A stretch of 64,000 nucleotides of DNA from Eledone cirrhosa (lineage: Eukaryota): assembly GCA_964016885.1 (NCBI GenBank), contig OZ024752.1, positions 26,102,001-26,166,000 of the forward strand, in the 5' to 3' direction. Positions 4,292 through 61,912 of the stretch are shown here, in pieces (within the stretch, counting starts at the first letter, position 1; each line of letters starts with the position of its first letter). A model generated the notes under the pieces. That model was not told where the DNA came from, did not search any database, and saw nothing but the letters and a program-made list of their open reading frames with translations. The position numbers and the translations under genes are program-made.

Positions 4292-5160
4292 CTAAACTCC
4301 GCCAGTTGCAGACTGCACATTAACATGTGATATAACTCTCCACAAAGTTCGATTACCAGCAGCAGAGTTCAAAGAGCAAAGATCAAGTCTAGTCCATAAA
4401 TTGACATTGTCAAGCCATTGTTTTGGCTGCGGGCCCCTGCTTCTCTTACCAGCCAACCTTCCTTCCAGGCATAACATACTCACACCACGAGTTGATCTTT
4501 TTATATGGCCGTATAGTTTGAGTAATCTTGACTTGACAATTGATGTAATTCGTCTAAGTTTGGTAATGTTGAGCAGCTCACTGATACAGATACGGTCGCT
4601 GAGCCGCTTGCTCATGATGTGGTTCTGGATTGTAGAGAGCTTCTGAAGTGACCTTGTCGTCCAATTAACACGGTCAAGACCATATAACACAACTGGTAGA
4701 ATGTAAGTATCAAAGATCTTGGCCTTCAAATGATAGAAAACACGTTTTGATGTTAGTACTTCTTTGTTCTTGTTGAAAGCTGCCCAACCTAGAGCGATTC
4801 TATATTGCGCAGCAACCATTCCATTGTTGTTTGATGATAGTTTGTGACCGAGATATACAAACTCCGTAACTTGAGCAATTTGCTGGTTGTAGATTGTGAG
4901 TTGGAGATTGGCATTGTTTTCGTCAGTGGTCATACATTTTGTTTTGGAGATGTTGATGTGTAAGCAAGCCTCCAGCAAATGTCTGGCCAGTACATTCAGA
5001 AAGTCTTGCAGATCAGTTCTAGATTAACACACGATGGCCAGATCGCCAGCATAGCTAAGATTTGATAGGATTTTACCTCCTATTTGATAGCCAGAGGAGC
5101 ATTCTTCTTCAGTCTGGTAGGTAAGTGCAGCTATAACTATACAGAAAAGAAGTACTGATA
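4292..5160 (-). pseudogene. RTE-clade LINE reverse transcriptase, C-terminal fragment
   Basis: ORF 4292-4978 with INISKTKCM, EFVYLG, RLLKLYGHI, LEGRLAGKRSRG...WLD; upstream degenerate catalytic motif (NLSYAGDL for YADD) near 5040-5065. Confidence 0.85.
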
Positions 5161-16591: not shown

Positions 16592-16622
<31 letters not shown>

Positions 16623-16695
16623 GAGCGGAACAAGTTAACATTAAACAATCTTTTAAATAAATTAAAATACGATTTAAATATTTACCTCTTCTAGT

Positions 16696-16775
16696 GCCAT
16701 GACCGACGGTTTCGCTTATCAAAAGATTGGAAATTCAGAGAATTTCCAATGGAAAGATATAGCTCTTCAGATAGC
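16696..16775 (-). ncRNA. Type I hammerhead ribozyme (family B)
   Basis: GCTAT-CTGAAGA-GCT..long hairpin..AGC-GAAA-CCGTCGG-TC-ATGGC on the minus strand. Confidence 0.8.
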
Positions 16776-17331
16776 TCTCCAAATCTACTAGACATAAGTC
16801 CGTATAGATGTAGATATATCACCCTCTGCCCAGTAAATGAATCAAGCCGTTAAAATGACCCACACACTTATTGAACTGTTAGAAAAAGCGGGAATTATAG
16901 ACTCGTTTATATTTCTTGCTGCTAGAAATAGCAGCATGATACAGCATTTTTTTCTCTACATTAAGGAGAATTAGATAAATGATATAGATATCCCAGTAGG
17001 TACTAGGTACCCACGGAAATATATATGGTGTCTATAATAGTGGTTGTTCTATGGTACTAATTTGAGATACCAGAACTGTAAATAAACATTAAACAATCTT
17101 TTAAATAAATTATAATATCTATATCATTTATCTAATTCTCCTTAATGTAGAGAAAAAAATGCTGTATCATGCTGCTATTTCTAGCAGCATGAAATATCAA
17201 CGAGTCTATAATTCCCGCTTTTTCTAACGGTCCAATAAGTGTGTGGGTCATTTTAACGGCTTGATTCATTCACTGGGCAGAGGGTGATATATCTACATCT
17301 ATACGGACTTATGTCTAGTAGATTTGGAAAA

Positions 17332-17411
17332 GCTATCTGAAGAGCTATATCTTTCCATTGGAAATTCTCTGAATTTCCAATCTTTTGATAAGCGAAACCA
17401 TCGGTCATGGC
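17332..17411 (+). ncRNA. Type I hammerhead ribozyme (family B)
   Basis: Stem I GCTAT/ATGGC, CTGAAGA, stem II GCT/AGC extended by ATTGGAAATTC/GAATTTCCAAT, GAAA, CCATCGG, GUC site. Confidence 0.8.
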
Positions 17412-17601
17412 ACTAGAAGAGGTAAATATTTAAATCGTATTTTAATTTATTTAAAAGATTGTTTAATGTTTACTTGTTCCGCTCATATTTACAGTTCTGG
17501 TATCTCAAATTAGTACCATAGAACAACCACTATTATAGACACCATATATATTTCCGTGGGTACCTAGTACTTACTGGGATATCTATATCATATATATATA
17601 T

Positions 17602-24452: not shown

Positions 24453-24773
<321 letters not shown>

Positions 24774-26269: not shown

Positions 26270-27080
26270 TTTGACCGGCCACCTTCCTGGTGGCAAGGTT
26301 GTAAAAGAAAAGAAATTGTCATCCCTTGAATCGCAAGAATGTTTTGCAAATTTTGAAGGTGCCAGCTATCGCAGCCATTTGTAGACTATGAATTAGGGAG
26401 CTGCGCTTTTTGTCCACAAATCCAAGTTCAGTCATACTTTGGTCCAAGCGGGTTGGTATATAACCCGTAGCACCAATAATGATGGGTATGAAGCTAAAGG
26501 TGTATCTTGGATACTGGATTTGTAAACTCCTCATCATTGGTCCGTAGATGTCCTCCTTCTCCTGTATTTTTCTGACAACGTTTACATCAAGTGGGCAGCT
26601 GATCTCCACAACAGAACACGTTTTCAATGTGTGGTCCCAAACTACAATATCAGGCCGGTTGTGCTTTAATTTGGTGGCAGTTTTTATTTTCAGGTTCCAC
26701 CAGTATTCCTTAGTGCCATCTGTCTCAATATATTCTTCCTCGTTTGTTGTTAATTTTGTTTTCCGAAGTGCGTTCCAGATGGTTCTAGCTATCCCATCGT
26801 GTTTCATGGGGAGGTAGTAGCGAGATGACATTCTTTCGCAGCTGGCAACAATGTGGCTTACATCCTCGATCTTTGTTTTACATAGCCTACATTTATTGTC
26901 AGCTGCTGGCCCTCCTCTTTTGTGCAGCAGATATTTGGTAGGGAGTTCTTGTTCCTGTATTGCATAGAGATATCCCTCAAGGTGTGATGTCATAAACTTG
27001 TCGGAACTCCATGCCAGGCTTTTTGAGTGGTTTATCCCCTCTATGGTCTGTGTTTTACGCCTCAAGTATCCATGCACAAC
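26270..27080 (-). pseudogene. R4/Dong-like non-LTR retrotransposon 3' part: CCHC knuckle plus restriction-like endonuclease
   Basis: ORF 26319-27077: CRLC..EDVSHIVASC, KHD, RPDIVVWD...VVEISCP...KEDIY; 3' end next to (ACAT)n. Confidence 0.85.
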
Positions 27081-27160
27081 TTTTTCTGTAAATTGGTCAC
27101 TTTTTCTGTAAATTGGTCACTTTTTCTGTAAATTGGTCACTTTTTCTGTAAATTGGTCAT
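27078..27160. repeat. 21-bp tandem repeat x4 at the 5' truncation junction of the R4-like element
   Basis: (ACTTTTTCTGTAAATTGGTC)-type unit repeated. Confidence 0.9.
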
Positions 27161-31032: not shown

Positions 31033-31822
<790 letters not shown>

Positions 31823-33383: not shown

Positions 33384-33480
<97 letters not shown>

Positions 33481-33594
33481 TATAAATGTGTGCATGTATA
33501 TACATACATATACATACATACATTATATATATATATATTTATATGTATGTATATATATGTATATATATATACATATATATATGTATACGTATAT

Positions 33595-33635
<41 letters not shown>

Positions 33636-33645
33636 TACATATATA

Positions 33646-33684
<39 letters not shown>

Positions 33685-33763
33685 TATACATATATATATG
33701 TATATATATGTATATATATATATATGTATATTTATATATATGTCTATATATATATATATATAA

Positions 33764-33833
<70 letters not shown>

Positions 33834-34001
33834 GTATGTATATATATACATATATATGTATATATATACATATATATATATATGTTGTAATAAAATGAAA
33901 ACGAAATTTCATTTCTCACTCTTAGTACGGCACTTACTTAATTTCGTTTTCATTTTATTACAACTTGTCGTTCTCGGTACGCCTGGCCGGACTCACTCGA
34001 T

Positions 34002-34049
34002 ATGCAAATTAGGCTGCTCAGCCGTTAATTTTCATAAGGAAAGTATATA
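34002..34049 (+). promoter_or_regulatory. Candidate snRNA-type promoter module (octamer ATGCAAAT, TAATTTTCATA, TATATA)
   Basis: Same motifs with near-identical spacing in divergent family F (56304-56350). Confidence 0.4.
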
Positions 34050-34083
34050 CTTTCGAACGTTCAACCATCTGGCAGAAGGGTAT

Positions 34084-34126
34084 ACGATGCTGATGATAGC
34101 TAACAAGCTTGAAACTAGTACATCGT
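34084..34126 (+). ncRNA. Minimal type I hammerhead (family A)
   Basis: ACGATG-CTGATGA-TAGCTAACAAGCTT-GAAA-CTAG-TA-CATCGT. Confidence 0.88.
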
Positions 34127-34537
34127 TCCTGTGTCAGTGTTGAACAAAAAGGTGACGTGGTTGCCTTAACACCGTACGGCATAAATTCAGGCTGTTCAGT
34201 TTGTTTACAAACGAACAAAGCGGGCGCTATAATAAGCGTCCGCTAAACTGATACGTACATATATGTATGTGTACCTGTATGTATATATATATATATATAT
34301 ATGCATGCTACTGTACGTCTGTATACATATATGTATGTACGTATACATACATACTTACATTTAAGTAAGTGCCGTACTAAGAGTGAGAAATGAAATTTCG
34401 TTTTCATTTTATTACAACTTGTCGTTCTCGGTACGCCTGGCCGGACTCACTCGATATGCAAATTAGGCAGCTCAGCCGTTAATTTTCATAAGGAAAGTAT
34501 ATACTTTCGAACGTTCAACCATCTGGCAGAAGGGTAT

Positions 34538-34580
34538 ACGATGCTGATGATAGCTAACAAGCTTGAAACTAGTACATCGT
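34538..34580 (+). ncRNA. Minimal type I hammerhead (family A, copy 2)
   Basis: Identical motif. Confidence 0.88.
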
Positions 34581-34989
34581 TCCTGTGTCAGTGTTGAACA
34601 AAAAGGTGACGTGGTTGCCTTAACACCGTACGGCATAAATTCAGGCTGTTCAGTTTGTTTACAAACGAACAAAGCGGGCGCTATAATAAGCGTCCGCTAA
34701 ACTGATACGTACATATATGTATGTGTACCTGTATGTATATATATATATATATATGCATGCTACTGTACGTCTGTATACATATATGTATGTACGTATACAT
34801 ACATACTTACATTTAAGTAAGTGCCGTACTAAGAGTGAGAAATGAAATTTCGTTTTCATTTTATTACAACTTGTCGTTCTCGGTACGCCTGGCCGGACTC
34901 ACTCGATATGCAAATTAGGCAGCTCAGCCGTTAATTTTCATAAGGAAAGTATATACTTTCGAACGTTCAACCATCTGGCAGAAGGGTAT

Positions 34990-35032
34990 ACGATGCTGAT
35001 GATAGCTAAGAAGCTTGAAACTAGTACATCGT
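34990..35032 (+). ncRNA. Minimal type I hammerhead (family A, copy 3)
   Basis: Same motif, loop II AAGA. Confidence 0.88.
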
Positions 35033-35183
35033 TCCTGTGTCAGTGTTGAACAAAAAGGTGACGTGGTTGCCTTAACACCGTACGGCATAAATTCAGGCTG
35101 TTCAGTTTGTTTACAAACGAACAAAGCGGGCGCTATAATAAGCGTCCGCTAAACTGATACGTACATATATGTATGTGTACCTG

Positions 35184-35243
<60 letters not shown>

Positions 35244-35312
35244 TGGTACTGTACGTCTGTATACATATATGTATGTACGTATACATACATACTTACATTT
35301 ATATATATATGC

Positions 35313-35346
<34 letters not shown>

Positions 35347-35366
35347 GCATATATATATATATATGC

Positions 35367-35427
<61 letters not shown>

Positions 35428-35620
35428 TGTATATATACATGTATGTATATATATACATATATATATATATGCATATAAATATATATATATATATATATAT
35501 TTACATATATGTATATATACATGTATGTATATATATGCATATAAATATATATATATATATGTATTTACATATATGTATATATACATGTATGTATATATAT
35601 ATACATATATATATATATGC

Positions 35621-35651
<31 letters not shown>

Positions 35652-35715
35652 TGTATATATACATGTATGTATATATATATATATATGCATATATATATAT
35701 ATATACATATATACA

Positions 35716-35764
<49 letters not shown>

Positions 35765-35880
35765 CATATATATACAGTATATATATATATGTACATACAT
35801 ATATATAGTATATATATATATACATATATATAGTATATATATATACATATATATAGCATATATATATATACATATATACA

Positions 35881-35960
<80 letters not shown>

Positions 35961-36475: not shown

Positions 36476-38355
<1,880 letters not shown>

Positions 38356-39146: not shown

Positions 39147-39330
39147 TATACATATATATATATGTATATATATATATGTATCTTTTAATATGAATGTAAT
39201 CTCTAAATGTGTACTGCCACACTAAATGCTGTAATGGATGTTGAACCACCAAGCAACAATATTTGCATATGTATCTGTATGTCTCTTGGGTTGAAAAGGA
39301 GGTCATACAAGTGTTGATTCATTAATAAAT

Positions 39331-39377
39331 TGCTCCGAAGAATCCAAACCTCCGTTTGGAGGAAACAGTTGTAAGCA
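39331..39377 (+). ncRNA. Type I hammerhead in 5' pLTR (variant core CCGAAGA)
   Basis: TGCT-CCGAAGA-ATCCAAACCTCCGTTTGGAG-GAAA-CAGTTG-TA-AGCA. Confidence 0.7.
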
Positions 39378-39630
39378 TAAAAATGTTTTGAACAGTTCTT
39401 TGATTCTTATAACTTATATATAACTGCTCTGTAAATCATCTGACGTTATTACATTGAGCTATTTAACTTACTGGTAATAAGGTAGTAATATATTACTGCC
39501 TACCACTATTTAGGGTTTGTAAAAATATATATAACTACAAAAGGTTTTTGTATTTGCATAACCATAAATAATATCCTTAATACTATTAACTGCTCCATAC
39601 TGTTGAGCTGACATACAATAAATTACCAAT

Positions 39631-42099
39631 ATGCTAATCAAAGACCAACTCCCCATGTCAACCAAGAACATACCAATACCATCCAAGAATACATATGAGA
39701 AATTGTTGATCAACAGTGTAAATTCCTTTATCAATAGAGTGAGATGGAGGACATTCCATTTTGATAGAAACAAATCTAACAATGTTAATAATACTAACAA
39801 ATTTGACTCCTTCGGCTTTAAAACCTTTAAAAGCCCCCCTCATAACACACTACTTAACTCCTTTGAAAATGACCTAATAAAACTAGTTAAGAACATTAAA
39901 AACAATAAGCACCATAATAGAAACAACACCTTCTTAAACAAACTTAACACCTCTATTAATGAATTCAAAACTAGTAATAAAATTATTGTACACGCGGATA
40001 AAACTAATAACATATACAGCCTGAATTATAATACTTATAGAAAGTTTATATATAATGAACTACATAAAAGCTACAAGAAAACTACTATGAAAAACTTAGA
40101 GGATATTAATATAGAGGGATATAATATAGTGTCTAAACTAGGACTTCAGAGGCATACACAACCATACACCCCAAACCCCGCTAGATTCTCTCTGAAGGAC
40201 CATAAGGAGGACTTCATTAGCAACCCCTCGATTAGACTTATCTGCCCTTCCAAGTCCGACAGTGGCATTATCAGCAAGAAAATTTTAGATAAAATCATCC
40301 CACAGATTAAACACAAGATACACCTTAAACAATGGGGAAATACGGGTGAAGTTATCGAATGGTTCAAAGATATCAAGAATAACAAGGACAAAAAATTTAT
40401 TCAATTTGATATCAATTCATACTACACCTCTATTTCCCCTATCCTATTAAATAAGGCACTAATCATGGCCATGAACAATAGCGACCTGACTAGAACCCAG
40501 ATTGATGTCATCCTTGCGGCCCGTAAAACCATAATCACCTTTGAGGACCAATTATGGACCCGCAAGGATACGCACAACAACTTCGACATAACTATGGGGT
40601 CTTCGACATAACTATGACTCGGCGCAGGTCACTGATTTGGTCGGCCTATACTTACTTAATGAAATCCATAAGGACCTTCCATACCTCAACGGTGGTTTGT
40701 ACCGCGATGATACACTTCTACTTATAGAATATAAAAAATTCAATATAGAAAGAACTAGAAAACTATTGCACAGGACATTCAAAAACTATAACCTTAGTAT
40801 CACCATGGACAAAAACACTAAAAACGTTAACTTCCTAGACGCCACACTATACCTCGACTCAAGGATATATACACCTTTCCATAAGCCTAACGAAAAACTC
40901 ATTTACGTGGATACCAAGTCTAATCACCCTAGATCAATATTAAACTCTATCTCTAAGGGGGTATCCAATAGAATCTCTAATATATCCTATGACGCAAACA
41001 TATTTAGCAAAAACTCGCAATATTATAATCAAGCATTAGCTAGAGCCGGCCATAATATAGAGATTGAGTTCCTACCTACGAAAACACATAGCTACAGCAT
41101 TATCTCGCACAATATGTCCATGAGGAAACCTAGTAATATGAATAGCAACCACACGCACACTAAAGCAGAGGGTGCCATCAAAGGTAACCATTACCACAGA
41201 AACTACCGTAGTACCTTAGGAGGAAACAACACACCAGACACTAAAAACAAAAATAGAAGAAGAAATAATACATTTTTCAACCCTTCTTTCAACCTAAACG
41301 TCTCCACCAACATACCTAGGGCTTTCTTCTCACTACTAGATAAAAACTTCCCTCTAGGACAGAAGTACCATAACCTTTTAAACAAAAACACTATTAAAAT
41401 CTCATACTCTACGACGCCTAACATAGCATACCACATAGCTAGTAGCAATAAAAGAAAAATTAATTCTTACTTCCAACAAACGAAATCGCAACAGGGGGTA
41501 AACCATCAAAATATCTCTGTAGCTAATAACCCTAACAACGGCAGTAATAATAGTAATAGCACTAGTATAAGCAATAACACCGGGGACGACAACCCACATA
41601 TCCAAAATCCTATAGCTACCACCCGGACTTCTGCACAGCATTATAACCAGCAGACTAACACCCAGAATAATTGTAACTGTAGAGCAAATAGAACCTGCCC
41701 TTTAGATAAAAATGCCTAATCAAGGATATCATATACTCATGCACCGTCACAACTAGCAACTCTTCAGAAACCTATGTAGGCTCCACTTCTAACTGCTTCA
41801 AAACCAGGTATAATTCGCACATCCACTCGTTCAAAAAGCACAGTCTAGCCAGCTCCACCTCACTATCTAGCTACATACACTATCTAAAAACTAAAAATAA
41901 ACCTTACACACTCAAATGGGAAGTGATATGTAGCGCGACTTCGTACAAACCACCTAATAAATTTTGTAACCTCTGTATACTAGAGACCCACACTATTATC
42001 TTCTCTAACCATAACCTACTTAACAAAAAATCTGAAGTGTTCGCAACTTGCCAGCACCGCTTCAGACATTCCTTCCAAAACTTTAAGCCCAATATATAG
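39631..42099 (+). pseudogene. Naiad-type PLE polyprotein (RT, CxCx5C linker, GIY-YIG) with two disruptions
   Basis: STKNIPIPS, LKDHKEDF..NPSIRLI.P.KS, FIQFDI.SYY.SI, ITMGS, GLYRDD, VNFLD, CNCRANRTCPL. Frame 41713-42099 (absent from the ORF track) reads IIYSC..YVGST..FKTRY..H..SF..TSLS.YI..CNLC..E..LLNKKSE.F..CQHR. Disrupted by a repeated CTTCGACATAACTATG (~40581-40616) and a frameshift in the A-run at 41708-41712. Confidence 0.92.
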
Positions 42100-43533
42100 C
42101 AATGTCGGACTTGAACCAGACACCACCTCTAGCATCAAACACCAAGGGCACACCTTATACCACATCCCCACACTCATTGATCCAATATAACACTAATCGG
42201 GACATCCCTCTAGAACCCTTCACAGCAGGAATACCCCTTTGTACTTCTACTTTAGATGTGACTGCATCCAGTTGCTTGAACTGCACTACACCACTTTATA
42301 ATTAATGTAAAATTTAAACATTGAATTGATTGTATTGTTGGTGCTATGCGGGTGATTTGCCATCGTTGGATAAATGGAAGACTAATTAATCTAGTAACGT
42401 TGATGAGCTGTATAACCTATATGCTGAGTGCAGTGAATGTATTGCAAGTGGCGTATGAGTTGTACATATATGTATGAATTGATGGTCAGATTAGTGACAT
42501 GAGGAGTGTAGATTGACCTCTGGTCTACCCTAGTGATAGTTATCTTTCGACATCCAATATAACATGCACTGACCTAGAGCTTACCAGGGATTATTATATA
42601 TTGAAGTGATTCTATAATCATCCTGCCAGGTTCTATGAGTAGACTACAATCACAATGATCATTGATTTAGAAATCTCGCTCATCGTGTAAAATATTCAAT
42701 TGTGGCACTCTATAATGGAGGATATCACCATAATATGAACACCTTCAGTACAGCTTAATAGACTACACTATAGTTAAGACACTTTAAATTTTTAGAAACT
42801 GTGTATAACCATAGAAGTTAGGGACTATTTTGAGACACAATTTAATAGTTAGTAATAGAAACCACTGAGTTACCTCCCCTCATGCATTAACTCGCCTTAG
42901 TCACACACACACTTCCAGAAAATATTTCGATGTCGATTCTCGCAACGTAAGAACCTGCTGTATTGAACATCAGACTTCGATTCTCTAAGAGGATTGTCAA
43001 ACGCCCAATATCGAATCGTCGTGGATTATGTGAGGGGCATATAATCTGAAAAATACGCTCCCCGGACTATGAAAATGTTGCTGTGCATGAAATCCATATC
43101 ATCGCTTTGCTACGCATTTCCAATATTTTTAATGCTTATATTATTTCTCCACGCACAGGCTATAACAATCATATAAAGAATTCATTACCAGTTCAACCCC
43201 CTTAACACTCTTGATCACCTGTTTAAGTGCTTCCATTACATGTAACACTCTGCCACACTATAGCATTATATAAACAAGACGCACGTGCTTGCCACACGTG
43301 TAACTATTCTACTCAATAACCGATTATGACTATCCTATCGCATTAATTTTCATGTTGTATTTTAACCTGTATTTTTGATTTTATCTTTTAATATGAATGT
43401 AATCTCTAAATGTGTACTGCCACACTAAATGCTGTAATGGATGTTGAACCACCAAGCAACAATATTTGCATATGTATCTGTATGTCTCTTGGGTTGAAAA
43501 GGAGGTCATATAAGTGTTCATTCATTAATAAAT

Positions 43534-43580
43534 TGCTCCGAAGAAACCAAACCTCGGTTTGCAGGAAACAGTTGTAAGCA
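43534..43580 (+). ncRNA. Type I hammerhead in 3' pLTR (variant core CCGAAGA)
   Basis: TGCT-CCGAAGA-..CAAACCTCGGTTTG..-GAAA-CAGTTG-TA-AGCA. Confidence 0.65.
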
Positions 43581-43623
43581 TAAAAATGTTTTGAACAGTT
43601 CTTTGATTCTTATAACTTATATA

Positions 43624-43716
<93 letters not shown>

Positions 43717-43815
43717 GTATATATACATATATGTATATATACATGTATGTATATATATATATATATATATGCATATATATATATATGTATATATACATAT
43801 ATGTATATATACATG

Positions 43816-43853
<38 letters not shown>

Positions 43854-43897
43854 TAGATATATATGTATATATACATATATGTATATATACATGTATG

Positions 43898-43930
<33 letters not shown>

Positions 43931-44017
43931 GCATATATATATATGTATATATACATATATGTATATATACATGTATGTATATATATACATATATATATAT
44001 GCATATATATATATATA

Positions 44018-44063
<46 letters not shown>

Positions 44064-44077
44064 TGTATATATACATG

Positions 44078-44115
<38 letters not shown>

Positions 44116-44132
44116 TATATATATATATATAT

Positions 44133-45087
44133 GTAAAAATTGGAATAAATGCTCTGAAATAGCGATATATATGTGAATATAGACATAGAATATTCGAAAA
44201 TATTCTGTATGTTTATAATAAACATTATGTACACAGCTAAGTATTCTATAAGTCTCTAGCTGTGTCATTCTCGATAAAAGCACTGGATATGTAGTCCTGA
44301 AGATTTCTAACAAGAATGAAACGCGTAGATTACTTCCCTTGCTTTTATCGAGAATCTAATTGTAATACGTGACGTATTCTATTCTATAGCGATTAGGTCT
44401 TCAAAATGTTTATTATAAACATACAGAATATTTTCGAATATTCTATGTCTATATTCACATATATATCGCTATTTCAGAGCATTTATTCCAATTTTTAATT
44501 TCTGCCGGACCGGCAACCGCTCTTTCAAACCAGTTCCTGTACACAGCTAAGTATTCTATAAGTCTCTAGCTGTGTCATTCTCGATAAAAGCACTGGATAT
44601 GTAGTCCTGAAGATTTCTAACAAGAATGAAACGCGTAGATTACTTCCCTTGCTTTTATCGAGAATCTAATTGTAATACGTGACGTATTCTATTCTATAGC
44701 GATTAGGTCTTCAAAATGTTTATTATAAACATACAGAATATTTTCGAATATTCTATGTCTATATTCACATATATATCGCTATTTCAGAGCATTTATTCCA
44801 ATTTCTAATTTCTGCCGGACCGGCAACCACTCTTTCAAACCAGTTCCTGTACACAGCTAAGTATTCTATAAGTCTCTAGCTGTGTCATTCTCGATAAAAG
44901 CACTGGATATGTAGTCCTGAAGATTTCTAACAAGAATGAAACGCGTAGATTACTTCCCTTGCTTTTATCGAGAATCTAATTGTAATACGTGACGTATTCT
45001 ATTCTATAGCGATTAGGTCTTCAAAATGTTTATTATAAACATACAGAATATTTTCGAATATTCTATGTCTATATTCACATATATATG
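44133..45087 (+). mobile_element. HHR retrozyme-like family C: ~92-bp inverted piece plus ~2.8 tandem 310-bp monomers
   Basis: HHR at 44291, 44601, 44911. Confidence 0.88.
44291..44333 (+). ncRNA. Minimal type I hammerhead (family C; repeats at 44601-44643 and 44911-44953)
   Basis: GTAGTC-CTGAAGA-TTTCTAACAAGAAT-GAAA-CGCG-TA-GATTAC, enclosed by a 16-bp stem ATTCTCGATAAAAGCA/TGCTTTTATCGAGAAT. Confidence 0.85.
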
Positions 45088-45138
45088 TAAGTATGTATGT
45101 ATACGTACATACATATATGTATACAGACGTACAGTAGC

Positions 45139-45177
<39 letters not shown>

Positions 45178-45603
45178 CAGGCACACATATATATATGTAC
45201 GTATCAGTTTAGCGAATATTTATTATAACATTCGCTTTGTTCGTTTGTAAACAAACGGACAGCCTAATTTATGCCGTGCGGTGTTAAGGCAACCACGTCA
45301 CCTTTTTGTTCAACACTGACACAGGAACGATGTACTAGTTTCAAGCTTCTTAGCTATCGTCAGCACCGTATACCCTTCTGCCAGATGGTTGAACGTTCGA
45401 AAGTATATACTTTCCTTATGAAAATTAACGGCTGAGCAGCCTAATTTGCATATCGAGTGAGTTCAGTCGGCAAGGCGCACCGAAAACGATAAGTTGGAAT
45501 AGAATGAAACGAAATTTCATTTCTCACTATTAGTACGGCACTTACTTAAATGTAAGTATGTATGTATACGTACATACATATATGTATACAGACGTACAGT
45601 AGC

Positions 45604-45605
<2 letters not shown>
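45087..45605 (-). mobile_element. Family A subfamily copy (~1.1 monomer), HHR at 45327-45369
   Basis: Reverse complement of family A with substitutions; ACGGTG-CTGACGA..GAAA-CTAG-TA-CATCGT. Confidence 0.85.
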
Positions 45606-45687
<82 letters not shown>

Positions 45688-45692
<5 letters not shown>

Positions 45693-46558
45693 TAAGGTAA
45701 TCGATTCTTTTACAATGGAATTAGCTCGAAGGAGGAAAATACCCAATGAGCCGTGTATAAACTAATATGTATGTGATGAAACACAGATACCAACACATCT
45801 GTATATATATTGCAAAAGAAAATTTAGCCACATTGAAGTATACTAATTATTATACTACAGTTTGTCCATATCGATTTAAAATAATAAATCAACAAAGACG
45901 AACTGTATTGCCAAGAGGCTATGATGTTTAGACACATTTAAATTTCAAAATCAAACCTGTTCCGTAGATAAGTTTAAACTTTAAAATCCAAATATGTTTC
46001 GAGTTAAATAAGTGTAGGAATATCATGTCCTGCCCTCCTCAGTAAACATCCAGGAACAAATTGATATGCTTCACTTCTAAATAATTTAAAAGACTGCGTG
46101 ACGCACATGGTTTAACAGTATCTAGCTAGTCTCATAACCGTACTGCTAGAAATAACAGTCGTATACATGAGGCGGCTTTCAGCTCAGACTAGGAGCAGTT
46201 ATTAATAAGGTAATGGATTCTTTTACAATGGAATTAGCTCGAAGGAGGAAAATACCCAATGAGCCGTGTATAAACTAATATGTATGTGATGAAACACAGA
46301 TACCAACACATCTGTATATATATTGCAAAAGAAAATTTAGCCACATTGAAGTATACTAATTATTATACTACAGTTTGTCCATATCGATTTAAAATAATAA
46401 ATCAACAAAGACGAACTGCATTGCCAAGAGGCTATGATGTTTAGACACATTTAAATTTCAAAATCAAACCTGTTCCGTAGATAAGTTTAAACTTTTCTTT
46501 TGCAATATATATACAAATGTGTTGGTATCTGTGTTTCATCACATACATATTAGTTTAT
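45688..46558 (-). mobile_element. HHR retrozyme-like family H: 513-bp monomer x~1.6 plus inverted piece 46495-46558
   Basis: ATTAATAAGGTAAT at 45688 and 46201. Confidence 0.82.
45923..46050 (-). ncRNA. Type I hammerhead with long stem III (family H)
   Basis: GATGTTTA-CTGAGGA-GGG..CTC-GAAA-CATATTTGGATTT..AAATTTAAATGTG-TC-TAAACATC. Confidence 0.78.
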
Positions 46559-46579
46559 TTATATATATATATATATATA

Positions 46580-47005
46580 TACATACAGGCACACATATAT
46601 ATATGTACGTATCAGTTTAGCGAATATTTATTATAACATTCGTGCCGTACTAAGAGTGAGAAATGAAATTTCGTTTCATTCTATTCCAACTTATCGTTTT
46701 CGGTGCGCCTGGCCGACTGAACTCACTCGATATGCAAATTAGTCTGCTCAGCCGTTAATTTTCATAAGGAACGTATATACTTTCGAACGTTCAACCATCT
46801 GGCAGAAGGGTATACAGTGCTGACGATAGCTAAGAAGCTTGAAAATAGTACATCGTTCCTCTGTCAGTGTTGAACAAAAAGGTGACGTGGTTGCCTTAAC
46901 ACCGTACGGCATAAATCAGTCTGTCCGTTTGTTTACAAACGAACAAAGCGAATGTTATAATAAATATTCGCTAAACTGATACGTACATATATATATGTGT
47001 GCCTG

Positions 47006-47047
<42 letters not shown>

Positions 47048-47161
47048 GAAGGCTACTGTACGTCTGTATACATATATGTATGTACGTATACATACATACT
47101 TACATTTAAGTAAGTGCCGTACTAAGAGTGAGAAATGAAATTTCTTTTCATTCTATTCCAA

Positions 47162-47165
<4 letters not shown>
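46580..47165 (+). mobile_element. Family A copy with inverted 5' piece; HHR partly degenerate
   Basis: Identity to family A; stems I and III mutated (ACAGTG, GAAAATAG). Confidence 0.82.
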
Positions 47166-47223
<58 letters not shown>

Positions 47224-47245
47224 TATATATATATACATATATACA

Positions 47246-47284
<39 letters not shown>

Positions 47285-47398
47285 TACAGTATATATATAT
47301 ATATACATACATATATACAGTATATATATATATATATACATATATATAGTATATATATATATATATATATACATATATATAGTATATATATATATATA

Positions 47399-49241
47399 CA
47401 GTTGGGTGCGGATGCATTCATGTATATATGTGTGTGTCCGCATGTATCTGTGTGTTTTTAAATATATTAATAACTCCCTCTGGTCGAGCAATCTTTGAGG
47501 TGTGGGGACAACTGGAAAGCTTCCATTACTCATACTTCTCGCCTTCTTCACTACCTCTTCTACGGCCTCGATATGAATACCCCCTCCGCCTCCGTGGTAT
47601 TTTCTTCGTGGTTATAAGAGGCTTAGCTCTGTTTCTCGACCGTTATATCGCGTGACTATCTCCCCCTCCGCCTTTTGGGATTCTTTCTCACGTCGTGTAG
47701 ACGCGTTCTTGAGACTAGTAAAATGAGGTATCCTCTTGATAAGTTGGCAGACCTCGCAAGGACTCTATATCTTTGATATATTGTTTTTGTTTATGCCACG
47801 AAACTACGTAGTCGAGGAATTTAGGAACAGTTTAGGTATGATACATTTTATTACTAATTATATCTAAATGTTTCTTCTCTCTTCATAATGTATTTTTAAC
47901 TCTGATACTGGTTCAGTCTGGTTCAAACTGAATTGGTCTGTCCCAGTCATTCATTGAGCAACATCGGTGAAGTTGGCACCCTTAACTCACAGTTGGGTGC
48001 GGATGCATTCATGTATATATGTGTGTGTCCGCATGTATCTGTGTGTTTTTAAATATATTAATAACTCCCTCTGGTCGAGCAATCTTTGAGGTGTGGGGAC
48101 AACTGGAAAGCTTCCATTACTCATACTTCTCGCCTTCTTCACTACCTCTTCTACGGCCTCGATATGAATACCCCCTCCGCCTCCGTGGTATTTTCTTCGT
48201 GGTTATAAGAGGCTTAGCTCTGTTTCTCGACCGTTATATCGCGTGACTATCTCCCCCTCCGCCTTTTGGGATTCTTTCTCACGTCGTGTAGACGCGTTCT
48301 TGAGACTAGTAAAATGAGGTATCCTCTTGATAAGTTGGCAGACCTCGCAAGGACTCTATATCTTTGATATATTGTTTTTGTTTATGCCACGAAACTACGT
48401 AGTCGAGGAATTTAGGAACAGTTTAGGTATGATACATTTTATTACTAATTATATCTAAATGTTTCTTCTCTCTTCATAATGTATTTTTAACTCTGATACT
48501 GGTTCAGTCTGGTTCAAACTGAATTGGTCTGTCCCAGTCATTCATTGAGCAACATCGGTGAAGTTGGCACCCTTAACTCACAGTTGGGTGCGGATGCATT
48601 CATGTATATATGTGTGTGTCCGCATGTATCTGTGTGTTTTTAAATATATTAATAACTCCCTCTGGTCGAGCAATCTTTGAGGTGTGGGGACAACTGGAAA
48701 GCTTCCATTACTCATACTTCTCGCCTTCTTCACTACCTCTTCTACGGCCTCGATATGAATACCCCCTCCGCCTCCGTGGTATTTTCTTCGTGGTTATAAG
48801 AGGCTTAGCTCTGTTTCTCGACCGTTATATCGCGTGACTATCTCCCCCTCCGCCTTTTGGGATTCTTTCTCACGTCGTGTAGACGCGTTCTTGAGACTAG
48901 TAAAATGAGGTATCCTCTTGATAAGTTGGCAGACCTCGCAAGGACTCTATATCTTTGATATATTGTTTTTGTTTATGCCACGAAACTACGTAGTCGAGGA
49001 ATTTAGGAACAGTTTAGGTATGATACATTTTATTACTAATTATATCTAAATGTTTCTTCTCTCTTCATAATGTATTTTTAACTCTGATACTGGTTCAGTC
49101 TGGTTCAAACTGAATTGGTCTGTCCCAGTCATTCATTGAGCAACATCGGTGAAGTTGGCACCCTTAACTCACAGTTGGGTGCGGATGCATTCATGTATAT
49201 ATGTGTGTGTCCGCATGTATCTGTGTGTTTTTAAATATATT
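47399..49241 (+). mobile_element. HHR retrozyme-like family I: ~3.1 apparently identical tandem 591-bp monomers
   Basis: Units start at 47399, 47990, 48581, 49172; (TA)n flanks; absent from the paralogous block at ~53700. Confidence 0.9.
47731..47818 (+). ncRNA. Type I hammerhead with U3-A8 core variant (repeats at 48322-48409 and 48913-49000)
   Basis: TCCTC-TTGATAA-GTTGGCA..TGCCAC-GAAA-CTACGTAG-TC-GAGGA. Confidence 0.78.
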
Positions 49242-49416
49242 ATATATATATATATATATATATACATATATATATAGTATATATATATATACATATATAT
49301 AGTATATATATATATATATACATATATACAGTATATATATATATATACATATATACAGTATATATATATATATATATACATATATACAGTATATACAGTA
49401 TATATATATATATATA

Positions 49417-49505
<89 letters not shown>

Positions 49506-49542
49506 GCATATATATATATATGCATATATATATATATATATA

Positions 49543-49584
<42 letters not shown>

Positions 49585-49638
49585 TAAACAAATAATGAAT
49601 AAAACAATGAAACAGTTCCTTATATTAAACAAAAAAAG

Positions 49639-49793
49639 TTCATTATTTAACGATCGTTTCTAGGATATATATGTGTTAGAATTGGCATGCATACTCAACA
49701 GATCTATGTACAAAATTATACAAAATTATACAAACTATCAAGATTAAATATACATACCAAACACACATATATGCCGTCTTCAGAAATAATGAA
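49639..49793 (-). ncRNA. Type I hammerhead with very long stem II (family J, minus arm)
   Basis: Reverse complement of 49845-49999. Confidence 0.72.
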
Positions 49794-49844
49794 ATATATT
49801 TCATTATAATAATGAAATATATTAAATATAATAATGAAATATAT

Positions 49845-49999
49845 TTCATTATTTCTGAAGACGGCATATATGTGTGTTTGGTATGTATATTTAATCTTGA
49901 TAGTTTGTATAATTTTGTATAATTTTGTACATAGATCTGTTGAGTATGCATGCCAATTCTAACACATATATATCCTAGAAACGATCGTTAAATAATGAA
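49845..49999 (+). ncRNA. Type I hammerhead with ~115-nt stem II (family J)
   Basis: TTCATTATTT-CTGAAGA-[CGGCATATATGTGT..TTGGTATGTATATTTAAT../..GTTGAGTATGCATGCCAA..ACACATATATATCCTA]-GAAA-CGATCG-TT-AAATAATGAA. Confidence 0.72.
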
Positions 50000-50193
50000 C
50001 TTTTTTTGTTTAATATAAGGAACTGTTTCATTGTTTTATTCATTATTTGTTTAATATTTTATCTTGACTCTGTATTCCGTTTATCTTTCACCGAAAGTGA
50101 TTTTTCATTACATCTCTTCTTTCCATGATATCCGGAATACATTGAGTTCTTCATACGGATTGGACACTACCGTAAACTCTTGGTAGATTTATC

Positions 50194-50289
<96 letters not shown>

Positions 50290-50476
50290 TATATACACAC
50301 ACACACATATATATATATATCAGTACGTGTATGAGCGTATCAGTGTAAAGCAAGAATTTCAATATTGCACGTTTGGTTCAACAAACAAAACTGGAGAATC
50401 AATTAACCAATTTAATTTTAAATCATTCATATTCTGTCTAACGATGTTTTGTATCATGAATGCACACGTGTGTATG

Positions 50477-50551
<75 letters not shown>

Positions 50552-50829
50552 TGTGTGCGCGTGTGTGTGTATTTATGTATAACATATATATTTACATACG
50601 TCCATATATATATATATATATTTTTTTTTTAAGTAAACAGAGAACAAAAAAAAAACGTGTAAGCGAAGAGATAGTACAAATGTTATTATTATTATACATA
50701 TATATATATATGTATACACATATATATAGTTATATACATCTATATACTTATACAAATACATATATATATATATATGCCTTATATAAATACATATATATAT
50801 ATATATCTTGTATATTCAATTATATTATA

Positions 50830-50880
<51 letters not shown>

Positions 50881-50916
50881 GTAATCATATATGCATGTAT
50901 ATATACGTATATATAC

Positions 50917-50973
<57 letters not shown>

Positions 50974-50998
50974 TAATCATATATGCATGTATATACAC

Positions 50999-51065
<67 letters not shown>

Positions 51066-51175
51066 CATAATCATATATGCATGTATATACACGTATATAT
51101 ATATATATTATACATAATTATATATGCATCTAGAAATACGTATATATACGTATATATACGTATACATATATATAT

Positions 51176-51218
<43 letters not shown>

Positions 51219-51262
51219 CATACATAAATTTATATATATATGCATATATACATGCATATAGA

Positions 51263-51300
<38 letters not shown>

Positions 51301-51601
51301 TAGTACATACACATATTTATATATATATTTATAAATATATTTATATATTTATATATTTAAGTTGGCAGTGATAGATGAAATTATGAAGAGAGGTTTCCTT
51401 TGCAATGATATAAAGATAGAAAAGAACTGAACATGGCCGACATTCTAAGATAAGCATATTTTAACAGCCTATACTAGAAACAAAAATATCATCAAATATA
51501 GTTGAAGAAATTTATTTGTTCCTCACTTATTATATTGGGAAACAAGGTGACGTGCATTAACATACATGTGTATATACATGTGGATATATATATATATATG
51601 C

Positions 51602-51710
<109 letters not shown>

Positions 51711-51736
51711 TATCGTATATATATATATATATTTAT

Positions 51737-52110
51737 ATAATTGTTTCTACTTTTTGGCACAAGGCCAGCAATTATCCCAGGGTATTACAGGTACTTTATT
51801 TTATCGACACCATAAGAATGAAAGGCAAAGTTAACCTCGTCGGGATTTGAACTCACATCATAAAGGGCCGTAACTCTTTGCTGCCAAGCATGGCGTCCGG
51901 CTCTCTACCGATACTGCCAATAATTTTTTTCTACTTTAGGCACAAGGGCAGCAATTACCCAGTACATTACTGGTACTTTATTTCATCGACCCCGTAAGGA
52001 TGAAAGGCAAAGTTAACCTCGGCGGGATTTGAACTCAGACTGTAAAGGGACGTAACTATGCTAGGAAGCATGGCGTTCAACCCTCTACCGATACTGCCAA
52101 TTCACCGCCC
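51737..52110 (-). mobile_element. Two tandem Nin-type tRNA SINEs
   Basis: Two successive matches to 25762-25953 (51737-51921, 51922-52110). Confidence 0.8.
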
Positions 52111-52177
52111 TATATATATTCATATTTCCTAAATTTTGTTTTCAAATCCATATTTATTAAAAACACCATGTTATTTA

Positions 52178-52238
52178 TTCATTCTGATGACTGAAGACAG
52201 ATAGAACATCTGCCTTCAAGAAACCACTGGTAAATGAA
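52178..52238 (+). ncRNA. Type I hammerhead (solo short element, family K, ~52120-52290)
   Basis: TTCATT-CTGATGA-CTGAAGACAGAT..ATCTGCCTTCAA-GAAA-CCACTGG-TA-AATGAA. Confidence 0.75.
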
Positions 52239-52313
52239 ATAGTTATCTTATGTTATTTATTACATAACTATATAATGTATGTGTATATATTATGTGTATA
52301 TATATATATATAT

Positions 52314-52682
52314 ATAAAAACAAATAACGAAACGAAATTAAATTTCGTTTCGCTTCTAACTCACTTTTGTATGACTGACGCTTAAACAATTAAGTTAAAG
52401 TGTACATCTACATATGTATACGGAAGTATTAGTATGCATATAAATACACACATGTATACATATGTACATGTACTCAGCTTTTCACTAGACACTTTACAGT
52501 GAGTGTCAGCTAGTCTGTATGTAACCACACAGGCGGACCGGGTTTTAGAGTCATACGAGTTTTCAAGGAAACACATTTCCTCTATTCTCCAGAGGGCCAG
52601 ACAGGAATATTGGACTAGTTTCGATGTTATTACATCTCATCAGCAATATTTACCCATCTTCCGGCTTCTCTGGAGAATTGTA

Positions 52683-52686
<4 letters not shown>
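52314..52686 (-). mobile_element. HHR retrozyme-like family F, minus copy (HHR 52606-52650)
   Basis: Circular permutation of 56211-56663. Confidence 0.85.
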
Positions 52687-56214
<3,528 letters not shown>

Positions 56215-56303
56215 TGAGTTAGAAGCGAAACGAAATTTAATTTCGTTTCGTTATTTGTTTTTATCGTTTCCGCTGAACCGGTGCGTACAATGACTCACGT
56301 TCT

Positions 56304-56350
56304 ATGCAAATTAGTCTACCCACTACTAATTTTCATAGAAAAAGCATATA
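56304..56350 (+). promoter_or_regulatory. Candidate snRNA-type promoter module (family F)
   Basis: ATGCAAAT at 56304, TAATTTTCATA at 56327, CATATA at 56345; matches family A spacing. Confidence 0.4.
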
Positions 56351-56396
56351 ACGATATGTGCTTTTACAATTCTCCAGAGAAGCCGGAAGATGGGTA

Positions 56397-56441
56397 AATA
56401 TTGCTGATGAGATGTAATAACATCGAAACTAGTCCAATATT
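56397..56441 (+). ncRNA. Minimal type I hammerhead (family F)
   Basis: AATATTG-CTGATGA-GATGTAATAACATC-GAAA-CTAG-TC-CAATATT, enclosed by ATTCTCCAGAG/CTCTGGAGAAT. Confidence 0.92.
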
Positions 56442-56724
56442 CCTGTCTGGCCCTCTGGAGAATAGAGGAAATGTGTTTCCTTGAAAACTCGTATGACTCT
56501 AAAACCCGGTCCGCCTGTGTGGTTACATACAGACTAGCTGACACTCACTGTAAAGTGTCTAGTGAAAAGCTGAGTACATGTACATATGTATACATGTGTG
56601 TATTTATATGCATACTAATACTTCCGTATACATATGTAGATGTACACTTTAACTTAATTGTTTATATATATATATATATATGTATACATATAAAATATAT
56701 AGAATATAATATATATATATGTAT

Positions 56725-61112: not shown

Positions 61113-61912
61113 ATATAATTTAACCTGTAAGTTATATACTTCTCGCCACCAAAAGTTCTACATAAATTGAGGTCTTTCATATAAGACTAAACATGAATAA
61201 GACTACCATGAATAAATAGTAGGTCATCTCAATCTCGATATTTTTAGAGCTTGCTTTATTATATGACAAGATAACATGTGATGAATGAAATTCTGAAGAG
61301 AGTTTCTTTTGAAATAATATAGAGATACAAACAACCGCTAGATAGTCGTGGACGATATTGTAAGATCAACACAGCCTCAGATTCAACACTGGAGGTGAAA
61401 ATATCTTCAAATATATTTAAGAAATTTCTTTGTACATAACTTAAAATACACACACTCAAAGAACTCATACATTTTCCAATATATATATATATATATATAT
61501 GTATGTATTTATATATATATGTGGGGGGGGGGGGATTTTGTTTATGTTATACGTGTATTTGTATATGTTTACATATTTGTTTGACAGTGTGTGTATTTTA
61601 AGTTATGTACAAAGAAATTTCTTAAATATATTTGAAGATATTTTCAACTCCAGTGTTGAATCTGAGGCTGTGTTGATCTTACAATGTCGTCCACGACAAT
61701 CTAGCGGTTGTTTGTATCTCTATATTATTTCAAAAGAAACCCTCTTCAGAATTTCATTCATCACATATTATCTTGTCATATAATAAAGCAAGCTCTAAAA
61801 ATATCGAGATTGAGATGACCTACTATTTATTCATGTTTAGTCTTATATGAAAGACCTCAATTTATGTAGAACTTTTGGTGGCGAGAAGTATATAACTTAC
61901 AGGTTAAATTAT
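61113..61912. repeat. ~330-bp inverted repeat pair (61113-61457 and 61586-61912) in TA-rich flanks
   Basis: Arms are reverse complements with few substitutions. Confidence 0.85.

Follow-up and report, generated by a model that had tools for sequence, protein, structure and literature searches.

A candidate non-LTR retrozyme of Eledone cirrhosa with insertions built like those of PLEs

What kind of element is a short, non-coding hammerhead repeat that stands in tandem within a (TA)n tract of the Eledone cirrhosa genome, and which machinery put it there? An earlier, sequence-only reading of the locus (contig OZ024752.1, assembly GCA_964016885.1) saw in this repeat, here called family A, a dispersed family whose features would fit rolling-circle reverse transcription of a structured circle. 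We analysed the 64,000 nucleotides at positions 26,102,001 to 26,166,000 of the forward strand, referred to below as the window and numbered from its first letter. The features on which the argument relies are collected in Table 1.

Table 1 Coordinates of family A, its relatives and neighbouring elements in the 64,000-nt window
Feature	Position	Strand	Remarks
Left (TA)n-rich target array	33403..33883	.	tandem-repeat scan and flank measurement
Inverted arm of family A insertion	33884..33941	-	exactly the 58-nt tail between end sites 2 and 1
Unit A1	33940..34393	+	5'-truncated start of the forward arm
Unit A2	34394..34845	+	probably mosaic: 5' part like A3, 3' part like A1
Unit A3	34846..35301	+	stops at end site 2 within (TA)n
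Right (TA)n-rich target array	35302..35960	.	tandem-repeat scan and flank measurement
Octamer-like motif ATGCAAAT	34002..34009	+	one per unit, in a stem common to A, A' and F
Type I hammerhead, unit A1	34084..34126	+	core 34090; predicted cut after 34120
Type I hammerhead, unit A2	34538..34580	+	core 34544; predicted cut after 34574
Type I hammerhead, unit A3	34990..35032	+	core 34996; predicted cut after 35026
Long-range helix strand	34174..34182	+	pairs with 34369-34377; in F, both sides differ in two of the pairs
Covarying hairpin	34219..34244	+	hairpin pointed out by the sequence-only reading
AT-rich rod with internal (TA)n loop	34249..34346	+	immediately before end site 2; in A', hit by an insertion
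Tail segment	34361..34418	+	end site 2 (~34360-34363, small hairpin loop) to end site 1 (~34418)
Fragment G	36830-38355		PLE of another type, truncated; minus-strand GIY-YIG fragment; inverted arms 96% identity, ~45-nt tail at one end
Decayed Hydra-clade PLE	39182..43625	+	241-bp direct pLTRs with hammerhead; RT and C-terminal GIY-YIG, three frames
Family B	44134-45086		2.8 copies of a 310-bp unit; inverted arm and 31-nt tail; canonical hammerhead with another stem III palindrome; abuts A' inverted arm
A' insertion, distal inverted arm	45087..45689	-	ends at end site 2; hammerhead intact, predicted cut after 45333
Family C	45690..46558	-	513-bp unit, own inverted arm 46490-46558, degenerate hammerhead; nested in internal (TA)n of A'
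A' insertion, proximal inverted arm	46561..46641	-	family C lies between it and the distal part
A' insertion, forward arm (1.1 units)	46642..47163	+	ends at end site 1; stem III palindrome broken
Family D	47399-49242		591-bp unit, 3.1 copies, no mismatch; in (TA)n, no inverted arm
Family F inverted arm	52317..52686	-	distant relative of A; ends at site 1
Passenger copy: A' junction and forward arm	52840..53457	+	inside duplicate 52683-56214; A' forward sequence 52921-53457
Family F forward arm	56211..56664	+	ends at site 2

Tandem units and insertion anatomy

The window is microsatellite-rich eukaryotic DNA (129 tandem-repeat rows; GC 15-48% per 2 kb), in which TRF found a period-452 tandem of 2.8 copies with 99% matches at 33940-35208. 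A hammerhead core lies in each of its three ~453-bp units, and both the triple tandem and the near-identity of its units, as first described, are borne out: the units differ by 1-3 substitutions (1/452, 2/422 and 3/424 aligned bases), next to an internal TA run of 10 (A1), 9 (A2) or 26 (A3) repeats. The unit is a non-coding tandem of a few hundred bp with a GC content below 50% and a complete hammerhead in at least two consecutive units, and a comparison of the repeats with one another found no unique central region between them. Among the open reading frames of the unit, there was none beyond low-complexity frames and none for an RT or a GIY-YIG domain, which rejects an autonomous Penelope-like element (PLE); distant blastn of the unit against plasmids returned no match. 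The insertions of the family have neither a poly(A) or repeat tail nor a definable TSD.

The array does not begin at 33884, where its start had been placed: positions 33884-33941 are an inverted copy of 34361-34418 (0/58 mismatches), joined head-to-head to the forward arm inside (TA)n. The inverted arm stops at what we call site 1 (~34418 in unit terms, where an unpaired stretch follows a hairpin); the forward arm stops 58 nt upstream, at site 2 (~34361). These sites were defined from family A, with subfamily A' and the related family F serving as tests. In A', it is the inverted arm that ends at site 2 and the forward arm that ends at site 1, and all three insertions have one arm at each of the two homologous sites, an arrangement with a chance of ~8e-4 for one further insertion under a uniform null. 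Site 1 of family A has no TA or AT dinucleotide within 4 nt, and a null restricted to TA/AT was uninformative. Arms ended at two different sites in 6/6 inverted-arm insertions examined (A, A', F, B, C and G), and all six have a one-sided tail, of 55-70 nt in A, A', F and C (70 in C), 31 nt in B and ~45 nt in G. At the head-to-head joins, microhomology amounts to 2 nt in A and 1 nt in A', and B has one untemplated base. Outer flanks were TA-like in 11/12 measured cases versus 12% of the window, the abutment of A' and B and the flanks of family D standing outside this count; family D and the Hydra-clade element have no inverted arm. An inverted arm together with two end sites ~58 nt apart is the 'tail' signature of PLEs, and A, A' and F each consist, as PLE insertions do, of a partial tandem with an adjacent inverted, 5'-truncated copy. 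This PLE-type anatomy is the most informative feature of the locus and had gone unremarked in the sequence-only reading.

Subfamily A' (33-41 differences from A over 404-453 columns) does exist, and its copy at 52860 does lie within a duplication, as had been stated, but the members listed at 45087 (-), 46580 (+) and 52860 (+) are not separate copies. Followed along the minus strand, A' runs from 46641 to its internal (TA)n, where family C (45690-46558) intervenes, resumes at 45689 and stops at site 2; we read 45087-45689 and 46561-47163 as one A' insertion interrupted by family C. The member at 46580, supposedly in forward orientation throughout, opens with an inverted piece (46561-46641) and runs forward from 46642. 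Since the copy at 52860 sits within a duplicate of upstream DNA (52683-56214) that is bracketed exactly by the two F arms, it is a passenger and not an insertion in its own right; it differs from its source by 6/540 in A' sites and 3/771 elsewhere. The split insertion and the passenger copy thus leave two independent A/A' insertions in the window and rule out four independent dispersed copies. The two A' arms differ at 10/345 positions, compared with 0/58 in A, 0/351 in F, 0/91 in B and 1/63 in C, and redundant stretches within arms differ at 1/163; the A' divergence may reflect age, two template molecules or two separate events.

The DNA enclosed by the mismatch-free F arms (0/351) is a 3.5-kb duplicate, with gaps, of upstream DNA at 46407-51888, which suggests either that the template switched to neighbouring sequence at insertion or that the assembly is at fault. 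A 12-kb (TA)n-rich stretch (43618-55708) contains nested insertions of the Hydra-clade element, B, A', C, D, a palindrome and F, forming a microsatellite landing pad; the palindrome (49580-50060) is near-perfect, spans ~480 bp and lies beside a TA array. Inverted-repeat elements at 16622-17485 and 61118-61909 may share the anatomy of family A. Fragments of two LINE-like ORFs and of a DDE_3 (Tc1/mariner-type) transposase occur at 26319-27116, 4292-5023 and 31261-31785.

Hammerhead, fold and covariation of the predicted RNA

The hammerheads of family A have canonical type I geometry, with a helix I of 6 bp and a bulge loop, a helix II of 4 bp with a U.U at its base, and a short helix III (1-2 bp, palindromic loop) that in A is a single pair forming, with its loop, a 6-nt palindrome. 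A descriptor scan returned 18 matches in the window versus one in total over 20 locally shuffled windows. Both arms of F, the inverted arm of A' and all three units of A have the conserved core CUGANGA...GAAA...UH with an open helix I; four of the six A/A' cores pass the descriptor, the exceptions being the A' forward copies, both of which lack the stem III pair. The same scan found no hammerhead in family D, and further motifs, belonging to other families, lie at 16770, 17337, 24553, 36200, 52184, 60986 and 63038. Searching the window with Rfam, whose hammerhead models are family-specific, gave no match at gathering level (the three A cores reached 19-20 bits against Hammerhead_HH9, E 0.08-0.11, with a cut-off of 52), and the hammerhead call accordingly relies on the descriptor and on covariation, not on Rfam. 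Matches to miRNA families at the level of Rfam E-values were located in the AT rod and discarded.

The base of helix II is U.U in A and A' and G-C in F, so that the G10.1-C11.1 pair is absent from A and A'. Cleavage of family A RNA may be weak, as its helix II is closed by U.U and not by the usual G-C; given that a U.U at this place is known for axolotl HHR_Amex2, family A marks a variant. The stem III palindrome changes as a palindrome between A/F, B and the family at 24553/63038, with duplex energies of -4.8 kcal/mol in A, -7.5 in B and +2.0 in the decayed A' forward arm, and the palindromic stem III of family A should work as a dimer. Two cofolded hammerheads had an energy below that of two monomers, but the minimum-energy dimers lacked the catalytic dimer fold and the result is not counted as evidence. 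A canonical metazoan hammerhead with a one-pair, palindrome-capped helix III has been reported to need a neighbouring copy for cleavage (PMC4209133, available text); the canonical geometry applied here to family A is likewise that of PMC4209133.

The cut-to-cut monomer, folded as a circle as the sequence-only reading had proposed, formed a stable structure (-153 kcal/mol, 67% paired, z -9.7 over 60 shuffles), and its non-TA part, folded without the AT rod, had a z of -6.0 (100 shuffles). The sense strand folded better than the antisense strand in 3/3 lineages (z -6.3/-3.7 in A, -3.9/-2.1 in A' and -7.4/-4.8 in F). The hairpin at 34219-34244, said to preserve its pairing between the subfamilies, does so: all 10 pairs are kept through eight A/A' substitutions, with three of the pairs changed on both sides. 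Among 22 fixed A/A' differences, 6 were unpaired, 11 preserved pairing and 5 broke a pair, and four pairs were doubly compensated versus 0.36 expected (P 0.00025); three of these four lie in the hairpin, and outside it the preservation of stems between A and A' was not significant (5/14 broken versus 6.3 expected, P 0.32). Covariation is seen again with family F, which is ~60% identical to A (E 2e-14) and folds independently into the same helix order. Two structure-blind alignments of A and F gave 14/108 pairs changed on both sides versus 7.1 expected (P 0.006; 36/108 broken) and 15/118 versus 8.9 expected (P 0.02; 48/118 broken). A pair counter applied to three lineages, a small set of related sequences of a kind that can beat its shuffles, found 18/123 pairs in 8/14 helices changed on both sides, a count that 0/500 shuffles reached. 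Hammerhead helices I and II and the long-range helix are among those that covary. The predicted family A RNA has a covarying branched fold conserved with A' and F.

The octamer-like motif is a candidate promoter element or protein site. All 12 such motifs of the window lie within A/A'/F, G or the Hydra-clade element (34002, 36906, 38320, 39261, 39552, 43464 and 56304), an enrichment that is inflated by copy number, and 9/840 permuted words are equally frequent. The snRNA-type promoter of newt satellite 2 may be linked to an octamer. Use of a promoter of that type by the satellite is cited from Coats 1994 in the available part of PMC2220036.

Template, origin of the trimer and mobilising enzyme

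The arms are longer than one unit and run scarlessly through the predicted cleavage site, which points to a circle or an uncleaved multimer as template; between the two we regard the odds as even. A cleaved linear monomer is rejected as the usual template, since the seven 5' junctions measured are all 74-224 nt away from a cut site (the family C junction, outside these seven, is 6 nt from a weakly predicted cut). The differing start positions that had been taken as a sign of a circle mark the points of 5' truncation, and the 3' ends use just two sites, both fixed; random circular permutation is rejected on the same ground.

A rival account has all three units made in a single event of rolling-circle reverse transcription on a circular monomer, a process compatible with PLE enzymes. 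At three variable sites the units A1/A2/A3 read T/A/A (X), C/C/G (Y) and C/C/G (Z), where A' has T, G and C; two of the three differences therefore match the A' state, with a P of 0.001-0.003 if they had arisen independently after three laps of one circle. A dimer differing at three sites, followed by one local duplication, yields both the unit mosaic and the TA lengths with no repeated change, and the TA runs of 10/9/26 also fit a later duplication. The single event is favoured by arms of more than one unit with scarless passage over the cut site, by a helix I that holds the monomer ends together in the circular fold, by the nearby family D trimer (0 mismatches in 2 x 591 bases) and by the accumulation of related retrozymes as circles in coral, mussel and axolotl (PMC7229834, available text). 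Against it speak, besides the unit differences, the 3' ends, which are fixed and not permuted, the ability of a linear multimer to form every helix of the circle, and the dominance of uncleaved RNA as template in the only PLE studied in vitro, as far as the available part of PMC11167929 describes it. We consider the single event doubtful. The trimer is best explained as a dimer with a later local duplication, which could be biological or an assembly effect; judged from its sequence, family A is compatible with rolling-circle copying. Of the earlier proposal, the structured hammerhead RNA that would retrotranspose is kept, but the arguments from start positions and from the triple unit do not hold in the form given: how many units a genomic array has, and where they start, is a poor guide to rolling circles.

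As to the enzyme, a decayed element 4 kb from family A has the features of a Hydra-clade PLE, to which it can be assigned by motifs given in the available part of PMC8557442. Its 241-bp pLTRs differ by 5 mismatches and carry a hammerhead (at 39335, core CCGAAGA); its ORF, split over three frames near 40600 and 41715 and with 125 homologues among 3655 candidates, contains RWR (RWK-like) and DKT motifs, a CxCx5C linker and CxxC plus CxH in the endonuclease, whose GIY-YIG match (E 0.003) lies below the Pfam cut-off; and its flanks are TA. Among the matches listed, family A showed no similarity at E<0.05 to the pLTR region of this element or to families B, C and D. The neighbour thus illustrates the type of enzyme available and is not established as the partner of family A; family A as its derivative is rejected, there being no pLTR or 3'-end similarity among the matches listed. 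Families C and D may be passengers of the Hydra-clade element, given the likeness of their 3'-end contexts to each other and to that of the element.

By its sequence features, family A would be a non-LTR retrozyme, that is, a new family of a known class, and one that inserts like a PLE. We put at about 0.8 the probability that family A is a retroelement that codes for nothing, is non-autonomous and depends in trans on a PLE with an endonuclease for its mobilisation; this PLE would most plausibly be one that targets (TA)n, for example of the Hydra clade. A related but unlikely reading has the unit as the detached 3' end (pLTR) of an autonomous PLE and its copies as short 5'-truncated PLE products. 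The shared insertion anatomy and fragment G, which is such a truncated PLE, agree with it, and a preprint (10.64898/2026.07.22.740005, available text) proposes pLTRs as the origin of retrozymes; yet in each of the three insertions, A, A' and F, one unit is preceded by another unit and never by ORF-derived sequence, the long helix I makes for a canonical hammerhead and not one of the minimal PLE type, and the unit lacks an ORF. Mobilisation of a SINE-like repeat by a LINE (e.g. of RTE or R4/Dong type), which LINE fragments in the window (4292-5023 and 26319-27116) and the 5' inversions produced by twin priming would allow, is very improbable given the missing poly(A), repeat tail and TSD, inversion start points that are fixed and homologous in A, A' and F where those of twin priming vary, and the same anatomy in a PLE fragment bearing GIY-YIG. 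Just as improbable is a satellite or assembly artefact, with hairpins that are DNA palindromes and a trimer mis-assembled between microsatellites: long (TA)n flanks, 99% identical units, the mosaic look of A2 and arm-to-arm conversion in DNA hairpins, which could mimic compensation, fit it, but the conserved catalytic core, covarying helices I and II with G.U pairs kept, a compensated long-range helix, the better fold of the sense strand and the recurrence of the anatomy in unrelated families do not, and an artefact could shift the copy number from 3 to 2 without touching the nature of the element.

Under mobilisation in trans by a PLE, we infer the following route. The array would be transcribed into a multimeric RNA that folds into the conserved branched structure. 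Adjacent hammerheads, as anatomy and literature suggest, would dimerise by way of the stem III palindrome and release RNAs of unit length, the ends of which helix I would hold together, possibly for ligation into circles. A PLE protein, probably a dimer, would then cut both strands of a (TA)n tract, and reverse transcription would be primed internally on the RNA, from one target end at site 1 and from the other at site 2, ~58 nt apart. The two cDNAs would pass the cleavage position, stop at variable points and be joined head-to-head through 1-2 nt of microhomology; their genomic product is seen here as an inverted and a forward arm with a one-sided tail. Later local duplication, in part documented above, would add units, and the internal (TA)n would draw further insertions. 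The insertion scars offer a concrete link that can be tested: they predict where on the 453-nt RNA the RT starts, namely at two sites, they give (TA)n as the target, and they suggest a clade from which the enzyme may come.

A broader proposal, which we advance tentatively, concerns the RNAs of animal retrozymes, which may be circles. A PLE dimer would integrate them by priming from each end of a (TA)n break, at two sites set by the structure of the retrozyme; sometimes two RNAs would serve, given the 3% difference between the A' arms, and sometimes copying would move on to adjacent DNA, given the 3.5-kb duplicate. A cis-recognition module would be made up of the tail hairpin, the AT rod and the two sites, all of them conserved at 60% identity, and the internal (TA)n would offer new targets from which nested retrozyme clusters grow in microsatellites. 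If true, the PLE-dimer reading would identify the enzyme behind the movement of animal retrozymes and supply PLE biochemistry with a minimal RNA substrate, and the cis-recognition module would let a ribozyme circle hijack PLE enzymes.

Comparison with known systems

The metazoan non-LTR retrozymes described by Cervera and de la Pena (2020; PMC7229834, here and below by its available text) have repeats of 350-390 bp in mussel, 330/350 bp in axolotl and 220-245 bp in coral, occur as circles in all three, and PLEs are named there as strong candidates for their mobilisation. Like them, family A is a short non-coding tandem with a GC content below 50% and one canonical type I hammerhead per unit, and its monomer is highly self-paired with the ribozyme free to fold. 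It resembles axolotl HHR_Amex1 in its single-pair stem III with a palindromic tetraloop and the weak HHR_Amex2 in the U.U at the helix II base. Its unit is slightly longer (453 bp) and has an internal AT rod. Whereas TSDs are mentioned and circles were seen for those retrozymes, family A is known from sequence and has an inverted arm and one-sided tail in (TA)n. We found no description of retrozymes with inverted arms and one-sided tails in literature that largely leaves out subscription papers, Repbase notes and supplements, where they may already be recorded; PMC13282606 lists Penelope families and does not mention ribozymes. A plant LTR retrozyme, with a type III hammerhead in its LTRs and a 4-bp TSD (PMC5680766, available part), is rejected, as family A is type I, tandem and free of a TSD.

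The insertions are matched more closely by endonuclease-bearing PLEs. According to the available part of Craig et al. (2021; PMC8557442), PLEs form partial tandems beside which lies an inverted, 5'-truncated copy, and one end bears a tail of 30-40 bp; the Hydra clade inserts into (TA)n and carries canonical hammerheads. For Poseidon_Ac, Frangieh et al. (2024; PMC11167929, available text) report a PLE protein that cuts and extends both target strands, starts reverse transcription at two positions inside the RNA, between which the tail lies, and prefers uncleaved RNA in vitro. Family A shares with these elements the partial tandem, the inverted 5'-truncated arm, the one-ended tail, the (TA)n or AT-rich target and a hammerhead in the repeat. 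Unlike them, it has no ORF, and its tail, at 55-60 nt, is longer than the 30-40 bp given for PLEs, as are those of A', F and C. Non-autonomous Chlamys elements such as MRC1 (available text of PMC8557442) are, as family A would be, non-coding passengers of PLEs with multicopy head-to-tail insertions; they are algal and generally similar in their 3' part to an autonomous partner, whereas family A has a canonical hammerhead and no match to a partner in the window.

For vertebrates, Li, Clavereau and Pollet (2026; 10.64898/2026.07.22.740005, available text) have interpreted retrozymes as non-autonomous PLE derivatives from co-occurrence and similarity to pLTRs, leaving the mechanism open; of nine predicted retrozyme dimers, one was cleaved in vitro and eight were not. 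In family A, the evidence is of another kind, with no pLTR similarity in the window. Thus, a link between PLEs and retrozymes that has so far been argued mainly from co-occurrence and sequence likeness is argued here from the anatomy of the insertions.
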